The notes under the pieces: model-generated
The model's database searches: none
Told to the model about the DNA's origin: nothing
Seen by the model: the letters and a program-made list of their open reading frames with translations, nothing else
Position numbers and translations under genes: made by a program
Shown here: in pieces, positions 371-7,636 of the stretch
How positions within the stretch are numbered: the first letter of the stretch is position 1
Layout: each line of letters begins with the position of its first letter
Virus genome (UHGV): UHGV-0069400
From: a virus
Direction: 5' to 3' (one strand)
Length of the DNA stretch: 25,507 nt

Positions 371-3300
371 AAGAGCTGTGCTATGGATCTGTTTGCAGTG
401 GAATTGAAGCCGCGAGTATTGCCTGGGAACCGTTGGGTATGCGTCCGGCGTGGTTTGCTGAAATCGAGCCTTTTCCATCTGCCGTTCTTGCGCTCCGCTG
501 GCCCCATGTCGCCAACCTTGGCGACATGACAAAACTTGCCAAAAAAGTCTTGGCTGGGGAAATCGAATCCCCTGACGTGCTCGTCGGGGGAACACCATGT
601 TTTACCGCGGGGCATATGGTTCTTTGTAAAAATGGTTATAAACCAATAGAAGATGTTTGCCCTGGCGATTACGTAGTCAGTCATCTCGGGCGGTTACAAC
701 AAGTAAAAAGAGTTGGTTCAAAAATAGCTAATACGGGGTTACTTAATGCCGTTGGGCAGCCTTTAGGTATAAGAACAACCAATGACCATCCCTTCCTGGC
801 GGTTCGGTGGAAAGCCCAAAACACCCGGAAAAATGGCACATATTTTAAGAGAGAGTTGTTGTCTGAACCGGAATGGCGAGCAGCATGTGATATGCCGGGA
901 TATCAATGGTGTGCTCTAACTAATTTCAATATTGCATCTCCAGATATTTGTTCTCGGTTCTTGTCTGAAGAACAGGCTATGTATCTTGCGGGCGCTTATG
1001 TTGGCGATGGATATATTAGGAGATGGAGAGGTAAATCTAAGAAGGCGGTTGTTTTTGGCATAAATTGCCAGAAATTGAGAAAGTTTCATTGCCGCATACC
1101 AGAAAACATATTTTCCGTGGCAAGCGAAATCCGAGGGAGCATCAAAGTAACCTTGAATGATACGTGTTATGCCAATTGGCTTAATGAACATTTTGGCGAG
1201 TTAAGCCATGCTAAGCGTATCCCTGCATGGGTGATGTCGCATCCATTGCGTCATGTGTTTTTACAAGGCTATCTTGATACTGATGGGACACCAAGTGGTA
1301 AAGCGGGATTTAGAATTAATAGTGTTAGTCCTGCGCTTGCTTGGGGCGTTGCGGAGTTGTCACAGACTTGTGGTTATGTTTCTTCGGTCAGCTTTATTGA
1401 AGTTGAGCCCAAAAAAGTGATCGAGGAGCGCGTGGTAAATCAACGGAATTATTATCAGGTAACAATCTGCCCGCAGAAATTGTCACGTAAATCAAGATTG
1501 GCTCATGGAATGCTTTTACGAACAGTCAAAGAGTTTAAATCGGTAGGCCTAGATACTGTATACAACATAGAAGTCGAAGGTGATCATTCCTATATCCTCA
1601 ATGGTGCGGTGGTCCATAACTGTCAGGCATTCAGTATCGCTGGATTACGTGGCGGGCTTGATGATGAGCGTGGCGCGCTAACTTTAAAGTATGTGGAGCT
1701 TGCAAATGCAATTGACGACAAACGGGCTGAGTCATTTCTCAAACCAGCCGTTATCGTCTGGGAAAATGTCCCAGGAGTCTTGTCATCGGCAGATAACGCC
1801 TTCGGGTGTTTCCTTGCCGGATTGGCTGGAGAAGATGCGCCATTTGAACCAGGTGATCGACCTGAATCAGGAAAAAGTAACGCGTTCTGGCGGTGGGATG
1901 GCAAAACCGGTTGCCATGCTCCAAAGTGGCCGCAGTGTGGTTGTATTTATGGACCGCAGCGAAAGGTGGCCTGGAGAATCCTTGATGCCCAATACTTCGG
2001 AGTGGCACAACGACGCCGACGCGTGTTTGTTGTCGCAAGTGCTCGAACAGACCTCGATCCCGCAACGGTACTTTTTGAGTTCGAAGGCGTGCGCCGGGAT
2101 ATTGCGCCGAGCCGAAAAAAGAAGGAAATCGCTTCCGCCATTATTGCAAATGGCGCTGCAATCAGTGGCGAAAGCCTAAATCCATGCCTACACGCTGACA
2201 TGCCACCCGGTATGAAATCGACGAAAGCCGTAAACGCTTTCAGGATGGCAGCATTTGGGGAATATATTGACGATGAAACCGCATCGACAGTAAAGGCAAG
2301 AGATTTTAAAGATGCCACTGACCTTGCCGTTTTTAGCAGCACAGGAGCAGGTTTTTGGTCAGAAGGGCATGGTACATTGCGGGCACGTGAGCAAGAAAGC
2401 CATGAGCATCTTGTTACATTGGCTTTTCCTGAGCGTATGAGCGGTACACAACATGCTGCAACTAAGAATACTTCACCATCTCTAATGGCTAAAAGTCCAA
2501 CAGCTGTTTGCTATGAAGTAAGAAACGCAGAAGTAGCTGTCCGCCGTCTTACCCCTGTCGAATGTGAAAGGCTGCAAGGTTTTCCTGATGGACATACGTT
2601 GATCCCGACGGAAAAGCGTAAAAAAGTTAATTCAGATGAACTGGCATATCTTCGCAATCACTATCCAGATTTAAGCGAAGAAGAGGCCGCGATGCTTGCA
2701 GCTGACGGACCGCGTTACAAAGCGATCGGCAATAGTATGGCAATACCAGTAATGCGCTGGATTGGCGATCGGATTACTAAGGCCGTATGTCGGCAGAAAG
2801 AAAGAAGTGAAACAAAAGAGCGAAAAGTTAAACCAGCGGCAGAATTCGAGCGGTCCATATTCAAATGGGCTGGTGGAAAATTTGGTGTTCTGGAACAAAT
2901 CTTTCGCTATTTGCCAGAAGGGAAGCGCCTGATTGAACCTTTTGTTGGTGGCGGAGCTGTCTTCATGAATGCCGGATACCAGGAAAATCTGCTAAATGAT
3001 GTGAATGCTGACCTGATTAACTTTTACAAGACTCTGCAACGCGAGGCGAATTCACTTATCACTCTGGCACATTGTTTCTTCCAGGACTACAACACACAGG
3101 AAGGATACCTGGCAGTACGGAATGCGTTTAACAAACAAGTCTATGATGATTTACATCGCGCAGCGGCGTTTTTGTTCCTGAACCGACATTGTTTTAACGG
3201 ATTGACGCGTTACAACCAGGCCGGTGAGTTCAATGTCGGTTATGGGAAGTATAAAACTCCGTATTTCCCATTGCAGGAGATGGAAGCCTTCCTTGGTGCG

Positions 3301-3654
3301 GAAGGGCGTTCTGAGTTTGTATGTGGTGATTTTGCTGCGGTGATTGAAGCTGCCGGAGAAGGAGATGTCATCTTTTGCGATCCGCCGTATGAACCGCTCC
3401 CAAATACAGAGGGATTCACGAACTATTCCGGTCATGACTTTAAGTTTGAAGAGCAAAAACGCCTGGTGTCTCTGTTGACGGATGCTCATCGCCGAGGTGC
3501 AAAGGTTCTCATTACTAACAGTGGCGCGCCAAACATCAGAGAACTTTATCAGGACAGTGGCTTCAGAGTGGAACCTCTTTTTGCCAGACGTTCTGTGTCT
3601 TGTAAGGGGGACACTCGAGGTGTTGCTCATGACGTTATAGCGATATTGCTCTAA
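367..3654 (+). CDS. dmt: Bifunctional DNA methyltransferase: N-terminal C5-cytosine MTase (interrupted by an intein) fused to a C-terminal Dam-like N6-adenine MTase
   Basis: 1095-codon ORF, GTG start. C5-MTase motifs: motif [12 protein letters not shown], motif IV split as GGTP / intein / CQAFSIAG, then [40 protein letters not shown]-terminal Dam-like domain: [18 protein letters not shown]. Excising the intein leaves 754 aa. The symbol is assigned by analogy with the P1 bifunctional methyltransferase and is from memory. Confidence 0.8.
598..1620 (+). mobile_element. Intein (341 codons) with LAGLIDADG homing-endonuclease domain, inserted in C5-MTase motif IV
   Basis: Starts with Cys ([20 protein letters not shown], block A-like) directly after GGTP. 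Block B TTNDHPF; two LAGLIDADG motifs ([22 protein letters not shown]); blocks [23 protein letters not shown], ending His-Asn followed by +1 Cys (CQAFSIAG). In-frame joining restores [12 protein letters not shown]. The segment looks AT-richer than the flanks by eye. Confidence 0.85.
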
Positions 3655-3674
3655 TAAATTTATTAGTGTAATAT
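3645..3674 (+). promoter_or_regulatory. C1-type operator pair overlapping a sigma70-like promoter
   Basis: ATTGCTCTAATAAATTT at 3645-3661 is a perfect match to the operator consensus and overlaps the methyltransferase stop codon. An inverted, overlapping second site AAATTTATTAGTGTAAT lies at 3656-3672 (2 mismatches). TTGCTC (3646-3651), 17-nt spacer, TAATAT (3669-3674) forms a -35/-10 pair. Confidence 0.6.
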
Positions 3675-3838
3675 CGCCTCAATGAATCGTGATTTATAGA
3701 GCGATTTAGCTGTTAGCCGCGACAGGCGCGGCGGCAAGTATGGCGGGGTAGTGACTCCTTCCCCCTCATGACGCCGAGTTGCCAGGTTGACCATACACCT
3801 AAGTGGCAACACCGAAGTGCGTTACGAGCTTCCAGTTT

Positions 3839-3864
3839 GCCCATCTTCGGGTGGGCGTTTTTTT
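3839..3864 (+). terminator. Rho-independent terminator
   Basis: 7-bp stem GCCCATC/GGTGGGC (one G-U wobble) with a TTCG tetraloop, followed by G and seven T. Confidence 0.65.
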
Positions 3865-4329
3865 CAGGGTTTTCGTCATGGTTAGCGACTTTGCGGCGGT
3901 TTAGAAACTGACCATTAAAGTAAATGCAAACGATGATCTGATGATGGTAGCGGCCTAAGAAGCCAGACGCCACGGGGTATGAGTCGTCCCCCGTCAAAAA
4001 ATCGACCGCAGAGTGTCCCCGTCTGTGTATTAGGGAACGGGGAGGCACAACAGGTAAGGGCGCTGGTGTGATTAACCAGATGAACGAGAAGGGGCCATCT
4101 GTTGGTCAGCGTCCTTTCCTGTTGCGTCTTCTTTTCAGCGTAACAGCGGTGCTTAACAGCACTTTGGGTACAGTTCCACGAATTTACGGGTATATCCCGT
4201 CATGCTGAAAGCGCTAATCACGCTGGAAGCCAGGGTTATGCATCCCCTGTTACCGAATTGCAGCCAGGGCGCGGTGCGCCGAAAAGCATACGGAGGTGGA
4301 AGCCCTCGCCGGAGACGTACCCGGCAAGT

Positions 4330-4405
4330 GATGGTGTAGCTCAGCGGTTAGAGCGGTTGACTGTTAATCAACGGGTCGATGGTTCAAATCCATCCACCAT
4401 CGCCA
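4330..4405 (+). tRNA. tRNA-Asn (anticodon GTT)
   Basis: 76-nt cloverleaf folded by hand: acceptor GATGGTG/CACCATC, D-arm GCTC-AGCGGTTA-GAGC, anticodon arm GTTGA-CTGTTAA-TCAAC, T-arm GATGG-TTCAAAT-CCATC, discriminator G, encoded CCA. Confidence 0.9.
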
Positions 4406-4407
4406 AT

Positions 4408-4483
4408 GCCGGTTTAGCTCAGTTGGTAGAGCGCCTGCCTTGTAAGCAGGATGTCAGCGGTTCGAGTCCGTTAACCGGCACCA
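4408..4483 (+). tRNA. tRNA-Thr (anticodon TGT)
   Basis: 76-nt cloverleaf: acceptor GCCGGTT/AACCGGC, D-arm GCTC-AGTTGGTA-GAGC, anticodon arm CCTGC-CTTGTAA-GCAGG, T-arm AGCGG-TTCGAGT-CCGTT, encoded CCA. Starts 2 nt after tRNA-Asn. Confidence 0.9.
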
Positions 4484-4491
4484 ACACAACA

Positions 4492-4565
4492 GGTAAGGGT
4501 ATTTTGCGACGTCGGAGATCGCCGTGCTTGGCAGAGGGTTCGAATCCCTACGAAGTACCCTTACC
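4492..4565 (+). ncRNA. tRNA-like element lacking a canonical anticodon arm (tRNA remnant or minimal tRNA-like RNA)
   Basis: 74 nt closed by a perfect 8-bp stem GGTAAGGG/CCCTTACC. Contains a D-arm-like hairpin GCGA-CGTCGGAGA-TCGC and a T-arm-like hairpin AGGG-TTCGAAT-CCCT, but no 5-7-5 anticodon arm, and 8 unpaired nt between the T-stem and the 3' acceptor strand. Starts 8 nt after tRNA-Thr. Confidence 0.45.
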
Positions 4566-4711
4566 GTTGTGATGAAGTGCAGCTCTTAGAAGCAACCAGA
4601 AGATAAGCATCTGGCTTCACAACATAAACCGCAGGAACGACCAATAAACGGTAGTCCGTATGGAGAACACCCCGTTGAGGAAGAGGCCTGGCCGGAACCG
4701 TAACCGGCACT

Positions 4712-4803
4712 ACAACGTTGAGAACACTGGCGTAACGGGGTCATATCCCAATCTACGAATAAATGTTGCGTTGCAGCGTGACAACCAGTGTTCTCAACAT
4801 TGT
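4712..4803 (+). repeat. Structured repeat unit 1: 19-bp inverted-repeat stem enclosing a conserved 25-nt core
   Basis: Arms ACAACGTTGAGAACACTGG (4712-4730) and CCAGTGTTCTCAACATTGT (4785-4803), one mismatch. Inner stem CGTA/TACG and conserved core GTAACGGGGTCATATCCCAATCTAC (4732-4756). Conserved GGTGAATGC follows at 4804-4812. Confidence 0.6.
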
Positions 4804-4996
4804 GGTGAATGCACAGGCTGATGTGCCGCAACTACAGTAGTGCGCGCTTTGCGGGGCTTGCTACAACCCTGTGTCGGAGTTCAGCACCGACCATCACAGT
4901 TTGATTCTCTGGCATGAGCATAACGCTGAAATAAGTCCAGTCTGGTGCGGCCCGATCACCCGCCGTTAGCTCCACGAAACGGAGCACGTAACAGGT

Positions 4997-5056
4997 AAGA
5001 GCATTCTCCTGTAACGGGTTCATATCCCAATCTACAGGTCCACCAAGAATGCTCTT
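4997..5056 (+). repeat. Structured repeat unit 2: second copy of the conserved core with different but still complementary stems
   Basis: Arms AAGAGCATTCT (4997-5007) and AGAATGCTCTT (5046-5056). Inner stem CCTGTA/TACAGG. Core GTAACGGGTTCATATCCCAATCTAC (5011-5035), 24 of 25 identical to unit 1. GGTGAATGC at 5065-5073. Confidence 0.6.
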
Positions 5057-5214
5057 TCCGTTGCGGTGAATGCGGCTAAGCGCACGCGGGGAAATGGTTA
5101 TATCTGTCCATTATTTCTCCTTGTTTCCACGTCCACGGTGGATAACCAGCCAAAGGACACCGGGAGGCACCCGGCACCGCAACCTTATTTCCCAACCAGT
5201 AATGAGGTTAATAA

Positions 5215-5640
5215 ATGCTCGGCATTCTCAAAAAGAAATTCCGCAAAGCGGCTGGCGGAGTCAAGAAGATGGAAAACCGTGATGCGGTGGAAGCGACTGT
5301 CTGGGGCGCATATTCCATTGCATACTCTGACGGCACCTGCGATGCGAAAGAAATTGCAGTATTGGAAAAAACCATTGCAGCACTTCCTGCCTTTGCGCCG
5401 TTCTCCGGTGAAATTGCCCAGATGAGCGCCAATATTCGCGCTCAATATGAAGCCTCGCCGCGCCGAGCGAATGCCCAGGCTTTACGTGAACTGGCTGACG
5501 TGTCTGGAACTAATGATGCGGTAGATGTTCTGTGCCTATGCATTGATATTGCTGACCAGGATGGCATTGGGGCAGAAGAGCAGGAGCAATTGAAGAAAAT
5601 TGCCCAGGCTCTTCAATTGCCACTGGAACAGTATATCTGA
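5215..5640 (+). CDS. tciA: TerB-like protein (tellurite-resistance TerB family; TciA-like)
   Basis: 141 codons. GAGG 7 nt upstream of the ATG. C-terminal VLCLCIDIADQDGIGAEEQEQLKKIAQALQL matches the TerB-type pattern. Position next to tRNAs and the helicase matches my recollection of the P1 tci cluster. Confidence 0.6.
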   Translation: MLGILKKKFRKAAGGVKKMENRDAVEATVWGAYSIAYSDGTCDAKEIAVLEKTIAALPAFAPFSGEIAQMSANIRAQYEASPRRANAQALRELADVSGTNDAVDVLCLCIDIADQDGIGAEEQEQLKKIAQALQLPLEQYI

Positions 5641-5804
5641 TGGTTATAAAAGCACGTCTAATTCTGGCTTTGGTTTTTCTCGTGCTATCTGTGCTGGTGG
5701 ATTTCACCAGCACAATCCTGTCGGTTTTATCCGACGGGGCGTTGGTAGCAGTAGCTGTAACATTGGTATGGCCGATATTTAAACCAGCCTCGAAGGATCA
5801 GTGA
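5640..5804 (+). CDS. Small hydrophobic membrane protein (54 aa)
   Basis: Not in the supplied ORF track. ATG overlaps the upstream TGA (TGATG). Translation MVIKARLILALVFLVLSVLVDFTSTILSVLSDGALVAVAVTLVWPIFKPASKDQ has two predicted TM segments. Confidence 0.45.
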   Translation: MVIKARLILALVFLVLSVLVDFTSTILSVLSDGALVAVAVTLVWPIFKPASKDQ

Positions 5805-5911
5805 TGAGCTTCTGGGATTTTGCAGATAAGTATCCAATTGTTCTCATTATCATTGTTGCCATAGTTGTAGGTGGTATTGTTAGCGCCATTGAAGCACTTA
5901 GGAAACAGTAA
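5804..5911 (+). CDS. Small hydrophobic membrane protein (35 aa)
   Basis: Not in the supplied ORF track. ATG overlaps the preceding TGA. Translation MSFWDFADKYPIVLIIIVAIVVGGIVSAIEALRKQ has a single TM segment. Ends 3 nt before tRNA-Ile. Confidence 0.4.
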   Translation: MSFWDFADKYPIVLIIIVAIVVGGIVSAIEALRKQ

Positions 5912-5914
5912 TCC

Positions 5915-5990
5915 GGCCCTTTAGCTCAGTGGTTAGAGCTGGCGACTCATAATCGCACGGTCACCGGTTCAAGTCCGGTAGGGGCCACCA
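5915..5990 (+). tRNA. tRNA-Ile2 (anticodon CAT, presumably lysidine-modified; elongator Met not excluded)
   Basis: 76-nt cloverleaf: acceptor GGCCCTT/AGGGGCC, D-arm GCTC-AGTGGTTA-GAGC, anticodon loop CTCATAA, T-arm ACCGG-TTCAAGT-CCGGT, encoded CCA. Body resembles E. coli ileX as I recall it; the G1-C72 pair argues against initiator tRNA. Confidence 0.85.
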
Positions 5991-6227
5991 TATTTGGTTG
6001 TAACACGGCGTCTGGCACATGCGTCGTTAGCGGTCTGGTGACGTTAAAGGGGTTACCTTTTCCCCTAGCTCAGGCAACAAACCAGGTAGCCGGAATGTGC
6101 AAGCCCCGTTCATAGCGTCGGACTGCGGATTCACCATCTTGGCGATTCGGTGTGACAGCCGGGAAGAGTCCGGCGAATTAATCCTGATTTTCTGGTGATG
6201 ACTCATATCGTTAGGAGTGATTTGAGT

Positions 6228-6272
6228 ATGCCGATTATATCTGACATTCAGCACGCCTGGGTGGAGTGCTAA
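6228..6272 (+). CDS. Possible 14-codon upstream leader ORF translationally coupled to the helicase gene
   Basis: AGGAG 11 nt upstream of ATG 6228. Encodes MPIISDIQHAWVEC. Its TAA (6270-6272) overlaps the helicase ATG at 6272 (TAATG). Confidence 0.3.
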   Translation: MPIISDIQHAWVEC

Positions 6273-7636
6273 TGTCTGCATCCCCTCTTGAATCCATGCC
6301 AAATTCCCTTAGTGCAGAACAAGCTGTACTTGGTGGCTTAATGCTTGATAACTGCCGCTGGGATGAAGTGGCAGATCGTATAGTTGCTGATGATTTTTAT
6401 ACCAATGCTCATCGTGAAATTTTCAGTGAGATGGAGAGGTTATTAAGTCATGGCAAACCGATTGATTTGATAACACTTGCTGAAGCACTTGAACAGAACG
6501 GTAAATTAGAACGCGCCGGTGGTTTTGCGTACCTTGCGGAGATGTCAAAGAACACGCCCAGCGCGGCAAATATTTGTGCTTATGCGGATATCGTTCGTGA
6601 ACGCGCGGTTGTTCGTGAAATGATTTCCGTCGCAAATGAAATAGCTGAAGCTGGATATGCGCAGGATGGCCGGGGCAGCAATGAAGTGCTGGATATGGCT
6701 GAACGCCGCGTTTTTGAAATAGCTGAAAAACGACAAAAGAGCGGTAGTGGTCCAAAAGATATCGCCAGCATTCTCGATGCAACGGTATCTCGCATAGAAG
6801 AGTTGTTTCAGCGACCGCATGATGGTGTAACGGGACTTGATACCGGATTTACCGATCTCAATAAGAAGACGGCAGGGCTTCAGTCGTCCGATCTCATCAT
6901 TGTCGCCGCCCGCCCATCTATGGGGAAGACCACGTTTGCGATGAATCTCGTCGAAAATGCCGCAGTTCGTAACGATAAGCCCGTATTGGTTTTTAGCCTT
7001 GAGATGCCGAGCCACCAGCTGATGATGCGCTCACTGGCTTCTCTTGCACGCGTTGATCAGACTCGTATTCGAACAGGGCAACTTAACGACGAGGATTGGG
7101 CGCGGGTTTCTGGCGCAATGGGTATTCTGTTGGACAAGCAGAATATTTTTATTGATGACTCAAGCGCCCTGACGCCGACAGAGCTACGTTCCCGCGCTCG
7201 TCGTGTTTATAAAGAAAATGGTGGTTTGAGCATGATTATGATCGACTACTTGCAACTTATGCGCGTCCCGGAGCTGCAAGATAACCGAACGCTGGAAATT
7301 GCCGAGATTTCTCGCTCTCTAAAGGCGTTGGCGAAGGAATTACAAGTACCGGTGGTGGCATTGTCACAACTTAATCGATCGCTTGAACAGCGTGCGGACA
7401 AACGACCGGTAAATTCAGATTTACGTGAATCAGGAGCAATTGAGCAGGACGCAGACCTGATCATGTTTCTGTATCGCGACGAAGTTTATCACCCGGATAG
7501 CGAAATGAAGGGCATTGCCGAGGTAATTATCGGAAAGCAACGAAATGGCCCAATTGGCACGGTGAGATTGGCTTTTAACGGCCAATACTCACGGTTTGAT
7601 AACTATGCTGGTGCTGACTGGCAAGAGGATTATTAA
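6272..7636 (+). CDS. ban: Replicative DNA helicase, DnaB family (P1 Ban-like)
   Basis: About 454 codons. DnaB-like N-terminal domain and RecA-like C-terminal domain with Walker A ARPSMGKTTFA and Walker B LIMIDYLQLM. GGAG 6 nt upstream of ATG 6272; the ORF track begins at an in-frame GTG at 6266. Confidence 0.85.
   Translation: MSASPLESMPNSLSAEQAVLGGLMLDNCRWDEVADRIVADDFYTNAHREIFSEMERLLSHGKPIDLITLAEALEQNGKLERAGGFAYLAEMSKNTPSAANICAYADIVRERAVVREMISVANEIAEAGYAQDGRGSNEVLDMAERRVFEIAEKRQKSGSGPKDIASILDATVSRIEELFQRPHDGVTGLDTGFTDLNKKTAGLQSSDLIIVAARPSMGKTTFAMNLVENAAVRNDKPVLVFSLEMPSHQLMMRSLASLARVDQTRIRTGQLNDEDWARVSGAMGILLDKQNIFIDDSSALTPTELRSRARRVYKENGGLSMIMIDYLQLMRVPELQDNRTLEIAEISRSLKALAKELQVPVVALSQLNRSLEQRADKRPVNSDLRESGAIEQDADLIMFLYRDEVYHPDSEMKGIAEVIIGKQRNGPIGTVRLAFNGQYSRFDNYAGADWQEDY

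Follow-up and report, generated by a model that had tools for sequence, protein, structure and literature searches.

The stretch of DNA analysed here, 25,507 nucleotides (nt) of the virus genome UHGV-0069400 and referred to below as the window, belongs to a P7-like P1 phage-plasmid, and this study concerns the control region and 5' leader of its ban operon, where a conserved, structured RNA module is found a short distance upstream of an intrinsic terminator. Positions 3400-4600 of the window are 96-97% identical to P1, P7 and many P1-like phage-plasmids, and 3675-3870 is 100% identical to the E. coli plasmid NZ_CP021729.1. The interval is flanked by the stop codon of dmt (DNA methyltransferase) at 3654 and by the tRNA-Asn gene at 4330-4405, and the order dmt, control region, tRNA-Asn and tRNA-Thr genes, tciABC and ban is the same as in the P1 ban operon. 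A third tRNA gene of the operon is tRNA-Ile by the P1 annotation and is assigned to Met by ARAGORN on account of its CAT anticodon. Between 3700 and 3870, identity is 98.8% to P7 and about 87% to P1, which identifies a P7-type allele; the gap arises because one block, described below as P2/H2, is swapped between P1-type and P7-type alleles. In PLSDB, 111 records reach at least 95% identity with the window and 354 fall in the range of 80-90%, with 468 plasmid records carrying at least 80% of the 196-bp query.

The promoter of this region, P1ban, lies on the plus strand at 3646-3674 and consists of the -35 hexamer TTGCTC (3646-3651), a 17-nt spacer and the -10 hexamer TAATAT (3669-3674), base for base the "sigma 70 promoter P1ban" of the P1 record AF234172. 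An earlier reading of the DNA from its letters alone, from now on referred to as the sequence-only reading, had placed these hexamers correctly and overstated their quality in calling them near-consensus: they agree with TTGACA and TATAAT at 3/6 and 4/6 positions, respectively (7/12), and a consensus promoter scan of 3000-5000 reported no promoter-like site, P1ban included. The two overlapping C1-type operators of that reading are borne out. Oban-a (formerly Op72a; 3645-3661, plus strand) is an exact copy of the 17-bp asymmetric C1 operator ATTGCTCTAATAAATTT and Oban-b (formerly Op72b; 3656-3672, minus strand), which is part of palindrome I2, has two mismatches to the consensus. They overlap one another by 6 bp as well as the P1ban hexamers, and their coordinates equal those annotated in P1 (AF234172) and P7 (AF503408). 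Allowing up to three mismatches, the window contains six matches to the operator, compared with 0.14 expected by chance; the four further C1-operator-like sites (13505-13521, minus; 17129-17145, plus; 17178-17194, minus; 19270-19286, plus) carry one to three mismatches and presumably represent other known P1 operators. According to GenBank, Oban-a/b "controls expression of ban" in the P1 record, to which the P7 record adds the tRNAs. Promoter and operators are thus the already known P1ban/Op72ab (Oban-ab) control region, with the same hexamers, operators and position and no difference from the window, and there is good support for reading 3645-3864 as the region that controls the P1/P7 ban operon together with the operon's 5' leader.

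Promoter and terminator positions together predict a terminated ban leader RNA of about 184 nt (3681-3864, plus strand), its start being placed from the position of the -10 hexamer, with a folding free energy of -65.8 kcal/mol and a z-score of -2.24. The RNA would begin with a 5' hairpin at 3683-3708 (UGAAUCGU / GCGAUUUA), predicted in both the minimum free energy and centroid folds of the window and P1 leaders and containing two variable sites within the P1 family. It would end at an intrinsic terminator (3838-3864) with a stem of 7-8 bp, in which 3839-3845 pairs with 3850-3856 and a U3838-G3857 wobble is added, five of the pairs being G-C, followed by a run of seven U at 3858-3864. In line with the strong terminator that the sequence-only reading had put about 165 nt after the promoter, the -10 hexamer and the terminator stem are 164 nt apart, the loop is UUCG, the terminator hairpin has a folding free energy of -12.8 kcal/mol, and its pairs reach a probability of 0.96-0.97 in the ensemble of the whole leader. 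A terminator consensus scan found two sites where 2.4 were expected from shuffles; since the scan alone does no better than shuffles, the terminator is taken as real because 13 P1-family alleles and phage D6 all keep it unchanged. Among relatives the stem does not vary and the U-run measures 6-8.

The leader is noncoding. Open reading frames in the interval measure 26-49 amino acids (aa), apart from a minus-strand frame of 111 aa (3713-4048), so that the earlier description of the frames as only trivial is correct for most of them. The two longest frames tested (111 aa, minus; 47 aa, plus) gave no Pfam match, and protein coding was rejected as the frames are broken in relatives by 3-nt and 4-nt indels and by the U-run of 6-8. 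The terminator at 3838-3864 is the only convincing plus-strand terminator before the start of ban at 6266. Over the same distance, no sigma-70-like promoter was found on the plus strand by a scan that also misses the ban promoter (Pban), so that weak promoters are possible.

Between the 5' hairpin and the terminator lies the conserved RNA module ("DicF-locus leader module"; 3706-3823, plus strand), defined by a full-length match to a covariance model, R1. The window matches model positions 1-118 with 100.3 bits (E 3e-25) in a single copy; R1 was built from 20 diverse copies, the window sequence among them. Scores are 92-101 bits for P1 and P7 and 110-138 bits for lambdoid copies. The structured part of the module comprises about 100 nt with three hairpins and a probable pseudoknot. 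RNAalifold, applied to the 20 diverse copies, predicts a helix H1, a helix P2 enclosing a helix H2, and a helix H3. In this alignment (A2), 91.8% of pair cells are paired compared with 59% in the best slid control, and 12 pairs show compensatory changes. In a second, model-aligned set of 62 distinct copies (A3), 96.7% are paired compared with 57% in the best slid control, with 13 compensatory pairs, and none of 500 shuffles of A3 reaches the observed values.

H1 (GCCGCG-ACAGG-CGCGGC, 3716-3732) is the GC hairpin already noticed from the letters alone; its pairs are 91-96% kept (A2/A3) and it is invariant in the 13 P1-family alleles. P2 (3732-3776), formed by CGGC (3732-3735) and GCCG (3773-3776), has 99.6-100% of its cells paired and contains a compensatory change, pair 3735/3773 being C-G in P7-type alleles and U-A in P1-type alleles and lambdoid copies. 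The enclosed H2 (3745-3765) has a variable stem, GGGG/CCCC in the window, and a pyrimidine-rich loop, UAGUGACUCCUU. Three of its four model pairs show double changes, and lineages differ in the stem used (GGGG/CCCC, CUGGG/CCCAG, CAGGUG/CACCUG, CCCGGG/CCCGGG or CAGGG/CCCUG) with complementarity and the pyrimidine-rich loop retained. Pairing of the H2 loop with a downstream GGAGGCAC motif, found in the dicB and tciA leaders, was considered and discarded: the motif is invariant whatever the H2 allele and there is no covariation. H3 (3778-3810) combines a 7-bp outer stem, GUUGCCA/UGGCAAC, a 3-bp inner stem and a conserved loop, UGACCAUAC; 98.4% of its cells are paired, and five of the seven outer pairs have undergone double changes, for example to GUUGUCA/UGACAAC or GUAACCA/UGGUUAC.

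The candidate pseudoknot would join GUAUGG in the P2-H2 junction (3738-3743) to the complementary CCAUAC in the H3 loop (3791-3796). Both strands are nearly invariant, and they are paired in 99.7% of cells in A3. Pair 3739/3795 is U-A in the window and C-G in all P1-type alleles (GCAUGG/CCAUGC), with U.G intermediates; C.A was never seen. Scans of IMG/VR for non-consensus 5' strands returned four singletons, one with a G.U pair and three uncompensated. This pattern is read as strong purifying selection plus one compensatory event, which makes the pseudoknot probable.

Covariance analysis across related phage-plasmids, proposed by the sequence-only reading as a check, was possible with the 13 distinct P1-family alleles. 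H1, H3 and the terminator stem never vary among them. P1-type and P7-type alleles carry different versions of the block 3735-3773, exchanged in such a way that P2 (U-A to C-G), H2 and the pseudoknot remain paired, so that the changes in all three are compensated. The two kinds of P2/H2 allele are sharply distinct in phage-plasmids that are otherwise 97-99% identical, and a few intermediates carry the pseudoknot U.G. By comparison, the spacer between module and terminator (3811-3837, 27 nt), which occupies the position of DicF and other downstream segments in lambdoid prophages, is the least conserved segment in the P1 family, with five variable sites and a 4-nt insertion among the 13 alleles. 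It may form a weak hairpin (3814-3832); this hairpin and a P0-like closing helix (GCUG 3709-3712 with CAGU 3833-3836), both predicted by folding, were rejected as they are not kept in relatives. Because the spacer is the most variable P1/P7 segment, conservation sits in the module and terminator and not in a seed, and the alleles thus argue against a seed-bearing DicF analogue in the spacer and for a function in module plus terminator.

The same alleles bear on the proposal that the module is an evolutionary relic, left behind when a P1 ancestor recombined with a lambdoid early-left operon and having no function in P1 or P7 beyond that of the terminator. Mosaic ancestry is suggested by a stretch resembling the RNA family STnc100 at 5062-5181 and by repeated cassette-junction motifs, both described below, and phage D6 manages without the module. 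Against this, H1 and H3 do not change across the 13 alleles, the pairing of the barely changing pseudoknot strands is kept, and the P1-type/P7-type differences leave P2, H2 and the pseudoknot paired, which points to selection for the fold within the family. With 468 plasmid records also carrying at least 80% of the query, a relic is the least probable of the explanations considered here.

Homologues of the module are widespread outside the P1 family. A BLAST search of 3675-3870 against 5426 complete E. coli genomes gave matches in 4396 of them, typically with about 81% identity over 3717-3814 and in 1-8 places per genome, mostly chromosomal. To collect further copies, IMG/VR and one genome per species were scanned with sequence patterns and phage records were searched by BLAST, and the module was found in lambdoid phages and prophages of Escherichia and Shigella, in Salmonella phage F1055, in Citrobacter, Trabulsiella, Serratia symbiotica, Erwinia tracheiphila and Izhakiella, and in a phage recorded as infecting Actinobacillus. 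Given this pattern-based collection, the true breadth of the family is uncertain. Rfam, with which the window, K-12, the Salmonella phage F1055 and the Erwinia locus were scanned, has no family for the module. The functional phages Ayreon, mEp460 and cdtI carry it in the early-left operon, preceded by the repressor gene and then one to three small open reading frames and followed by kil/dicB, recombination genes, xis and int; no N-like gene was found near the module in these three phages. In lambdoid prophages, the module sits mid-operon, 300-900 nt inside and without a promoter of its own. Lambdoid copies possess an added closing helix, GUUGUGG/CCACAAC, with a boxA-like motif, UGCUCUYU, just upstream. 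This motif (UGCUCUUUCC / GUGCUCUCUUC) lies directly 5' of the GUUGUGG strand in many lambdoid copies (loci L167, L128, L170 and L175) and might indicate involvement of Nus factors.

What the copies share beyond the fold is a terminator. Among 100 copies collected by module sequence only, 96 have an intrinsic terminator, that is, a hairpin followed by a U-run, 40-121 nt downstream, the four exceptions being long-stem hairpins missed by the simple detector used; in the window, the distance from the end of the model to the end of the U-run is 41 nt. The segment between module and terminator, referred to as the payload, falls into at least nine distinct types of 40-121 nt, DicF being one of them, and Rfam recognises none of the types apart from those of DicF. 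P1 and P7 represent an "empty" version with almost no payload, the variable 27-nt spacer leading directly to the terminator. In Trabulsiella, Serratia, Erwinia, Izhakiella and Salmonella phage F1055 (L167, L148, L170, L175 and L128), the payload is a long terminator hairpin containing GGAGG, a short spacer and AUGUUCU(A/G)CCG, which could be a tiny open reading frame or leader peptide within the terminator stem. In phage vB_Apl-pPE4 (L127, 1590-1770), payload and terminator occur as a tandem duplicate behind one module, an arrangement consistent with cassette-like behaviour.

DicF, a prophage small RNA (sRNA), acts through Hfq-dependent pairing with the ftsZ, xylR, pykA and manX mRNAs. It is derived from the 3' untranslated region (UTR) of ydfC by early termination and RNase E cleavage at its 5' end (PMC9438474, PMC5069750). 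In K-12 and BL21, the stretch matching the module is located in the Qin prophage, with ydfC on one side and dicB on the other, and stops about 15-25 nt short of the DicF 5' end; Rfam places DicF at 2622-2673 of the K-12 locus (L004). Because the match ends there, P1 and P7 share the stretch upstream of DicF and not DicF itself. The P1 record labels 68791-68892, corresponding to about 3769-3870 of the window, as a "dicF-like region". The Rfam DicF model (RF00039, 52 nt) gave no match at E<=1 over 3000-7000 and none at E<=10 over 3640-3900, and the K-12 DicF scores 76.7 bits with the same tool. Membership of the DicF family was therefore rejected; the label is known but imprecise, reflecting the upstream flank together with a weak resemblance between the 5' half of the terminator and the 5' end of DicF. 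Common to the Qin dicBF operon and the ban operon are about 81% identity over about 98 nt upstream of DicF, the order module, short RNA segment and intrinsic terminator, and the setting in an early phage operon that is under repressor control and continues with genes beyond the terminator. The two loci differ in that P1 and P7 lack the DicF sequence and have the variable 27-nt spacer as their only payload, that their module lies 25-35 nt from the transcript start instead of in the 3' UTR of ydfC, that the closing helix and boxA-like motif are absent, and that the repressor is C1 and not DicA.

It could still be argued that the ban leader yields a DicF-type, 3'-derived sRNA, RNase E cutting 3' of the module to free a short Hfq-binding RNA, with the module as a processing platform. 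The position is homologous to that of the 53-nt DicF, which is made by termination and RNase E 5' cleavage (PMC9438474, PMC5069750), sRNA-like payloads of 53-121 nt follow other module copies, and the P1 record bears its "dicF-like" label. Set against these points are the missing match to the DicF model even at E<=10, the gap of only 27 nt between H3 and the terminator stem, and the tolerance of this spacer for five substitutions and a 4-nt insertion among close relatives. Further, a single-stranded AU-rich site exists only at the base of the terminator, where a cut would leave no seed, and we regard an sRNA of this type as quite improbable.

Since the annotations put ban and the tRNAs under P1ban and no plus-strand promoter was found in between, some polymerases must pass the terminator. 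We hypothesize that the module provides cis control at the terminator in the ban leader, by antitermination or attenuation, a tentative preference that falls just short of an even chance. C1 bound to the two overlapping operators, acting with Lxc/Bof, would shut off P1ban, the annotated promoter of ban in GenBank, and loss of C1 would permit transcription from near 3681. Polymerase would then transcribe, in this order, the 5' hairpin, the approximately 100-nt module (H1, P2/H2, H3 and the probable pseudoknot), the 27-nt spacer and the strong terminator. Polymerases stopping at 3864 would release a stable, structured leader RNA of about 184 nt, and those reading through would cross about 1.5 kb of untranslated RNA, containing the tRNA-Asn and tRNA-Thr genes and a stretch antisense to plp/upl, before reaching tciABC, the third tRNA gene and ban. 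The module would act in cis on polymerase or on the nascent RNA at the terminator and so set the fraction of read-through, like the HK022 put RNAs, and would not work as a base-pairing sRNA. Action in cis at the terminator is suggested because the association of module and terminator is constant while the sequence between them changes, and the near-empty P1/P7 cassette likewise points to it. Any modulation would act through polymerase or a factor, because the terminator has a pairing probability of 0.97 and there is no competing antiterminator fold. For the same reason a classical attenuator with alternative hairpins was rejected, inspection having revealed no extended upstream complement to either terminator arm. 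The sequence-only reading had offered an attenuator ahead of the tRNA-helicase operon as its second choice, and this came closer to the explanation preferred here, save that no antiterminator hairpin is encoded.

Its first choice, a noncoding RNA of about 185 nt under repressor control, is upheld insofar as the interval is noncoding and runs from a C1-repressed promoter to a strong terminator, which makes a discrete product of about 184 nt after derepression reasonable. The free-standing part of that proposal fares less well, as a conserved module that occurs promoterless and mid-operon in lambdoid prophages fits a cis-acting leader element better. As a rival to cis control, a trans-acting RNA of about 184 nt, made when C1 is absent, would bind a host factor or target RNAs through its conserved loops. 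Promoter and strong terminator do delimit a discrete unit, the hairpins at its 5' and 3' ends, the latter with U7, are of the kind typically seen in stable RNAs bound by Hfq, and the nearly invariant loops and junctions of the module suggest a specific binding partner. On the other side, the lambdoid module lacks a dedicated promoter, sits 300-900 nt into an operon and is followed by genes that need expression, the P1 and P7 annotations put ban and the tRNAs under P1ban, and no conserved single-stranded seed is evident, the sole unstructured stretch, the spacer, being the most variable one. Taken together, a free-standing RNA seems rather unlikely, though it is still the strongest rival to cis control.

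Cis control at the terminator has known parallels. The HK022 put RNAs are cis-acting processive antiterminators which make polymerase resistant to terminators (PMC9378689). Their read-through in cis is blocked by mutations in the zinc-binding domain of the RNA polymerase beta' subunit. A possible likeness lies in the folded nascent RNA of about 70-100 nt, the repressor-controlled early operons, the terminators downstream and the lack of an N-type protein nearby. The put RNAs differ in consisting of two stem-loops and a short triplex (conserved U28, G35 and A64) instead of three hairpins and a candidate pseudoknot, and in being paired (L and R), where the module occurs once per phage. Homology to put was rejected, as short-word BLAST and model R1 were both empty at putL and putR; the analogy is positional only. 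Premature-termination leaders, riboswitch-type attenuators and 5'-UTR-derived sRNAs likewise place a structured leader and an intrinsic terminator ahead of operon genes, and the terminated product can be a stable RNA. The ban leader differs from them in encoding no alternative terminator/antiterminator pairing, and relatives freely exchange what lies between the "aptamer-like" module and the terminator. The EAR element of Bacillus eps operons is a pseudoknotted cis RNA of about 120 nt that lies within the operon and promotes read-through of downstream terminators. It comes from a different phylum and is unrelated in sequence, and was likened to the module by general description only. More broadly, the module might constitute a new class of cis RNA acting on transcription elongation, a possibility that we consider doubtful. 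P1-type phage-plasmids would have this class in common with the lambdoid prophages of about 80% of E. coli genomes, and DicF and at least eight other sRNA-like payloads would be exchangeable cassettes placed between the module and its terminator. Such a class could be a factor-independent or Nus-assisted processive antiterminator, similar to put or EAR and unrelated to them, or a terminator gate sensing a ligand or factor.

It should be noted that several observations weigh against cis control by the module. Phage D6, which has no module, keeps the same terminator and downstream tRNA leader, so that the module is not obligatory for this arrangement, and the terminator might simply be leaky. 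The constant proximity of a terminator equally fits a role in the production of a downstream sRNA. Pseudoknot support amounts to a single compensatory event, and the patterns used in the homologue search fixed parts of the H3 loop and the pseudoknot strands, making invariance there partly a matter of ascertainment. Two features of the lambdoid copies are also missing: P1 and P7 have no closing helix, with UUAGCUGU...GAAGUGCG in its place and three non-pairs, and the boxA-like motif was not found upstream of their module. Finally, model R1 with filters off gave no match at HK022 putL or putR at E<=10.

Work on DicF over 35 years has dealt with it as an isolated prophage sRNA, and the "dicF-like region" of P1 has been an unexplained annotation since 2004. 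The literature accessible to the search contains no description of the module or of a P1 sRNA at this site. The element common to P1/P7 and the dicF locus is a structured, probably pseudoknotted RNA upstream of DicF, more strongly conserved than DicF. It is a member of an undescribed RNA family, whose lambdoid copies immediately precede DicF or other sRNA-like payloads ending in a terminator, in the dicBF-type early-left operon under repressor control. In the phage-plasmid, the DicF-locus leader/terminator cassette stands without DicF at the start of an operon controlled by C1. Matches to the module exist in most E. coli genomes, nearly always with a terminator after them, and the sRNA in between is swappable. 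If the module does control termination or sRNA production, this would explain how transcription in lambdoid phages without N and in the P1 ban operon overcomes a strong early terminator, and also how prophages come to exchange sRNA payloads. P1, with its clean C1(ts) switch and almost empty cassette, offers a convenient test system; should the module prove inert in P1, all that is left is a promoter already known, a terminator and a relic.

Several further observations concern the surroundings of the module. The D6 locus (L178, 2220-2530) has a remnant, "GGCACCCCCGCUGCAAC", that is similar to lambdoid modules at their 3' end, and just upstream of its terminator stands a second long hairpin. 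The segment 3865-4329 of the window, a noncoding leader of about 465 nt between terminator and tRNA-Asn, is also conserved in D6 (94%) and produced only weak, chance-level Rfam matches (tmRNA_permuted and mir-465). Within it, GGGGAGGCAC at 4038-4047 resembles the dicB-leader motif CCUGGAGGCACC and lies at a distance from the module similar to that in lambdoid phages. Rfam IsrK and C4 antisense RNA genes occur from a few hundred nt to 2.5 kb 3' of the module in some lambdoid loci (L050, 4732-4920; L067, 7039-7227), so that the lambdoid early-left region collects several regulatory RNAs.

A sub-threshold Rfam match to STnc100 is found at 5062-5181 (plus strand), just upstream of the tciA start at 5215, with 41.9 bits (gathering score 47, E 6.5e-8), and a boxA-like motif precedes this element as well (5050-5057). 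In K-12, STnc100 matches the stretch from DicF to dicB (L004, 2671-2880) with 34.4 bits. As STnc100 matches both loci, the two flanks of the lambdoid dicF cassette are both present in the P1/P7 ban leader, at a distance of 1.2 kb, and what lies between them in P1 and P7 is the terminator, two tRNA genes and the region antisense to plp/upl. The sequence CACAACAGGTAAGGG occurs three times in this part of the window as a direct repeat (4046-4060, 4485-4499 and 4987-5001), one copy lying immediately 3' of tRNA-Thr, and two further pairs of direct repeats are present (4732-4756/5011-5035 and 4789-4812/5050-5073). CACAACAGGTAAGGG resembles the "UUUUUACACAACAGANAAGAGCA...GACGGGCUCAUAACCCAAUCCAC" found after some lambdoid payload terminators, and the repeats look like serial cassette junctions, with tRNA genes and sRNAs inserted at the same kind of site.

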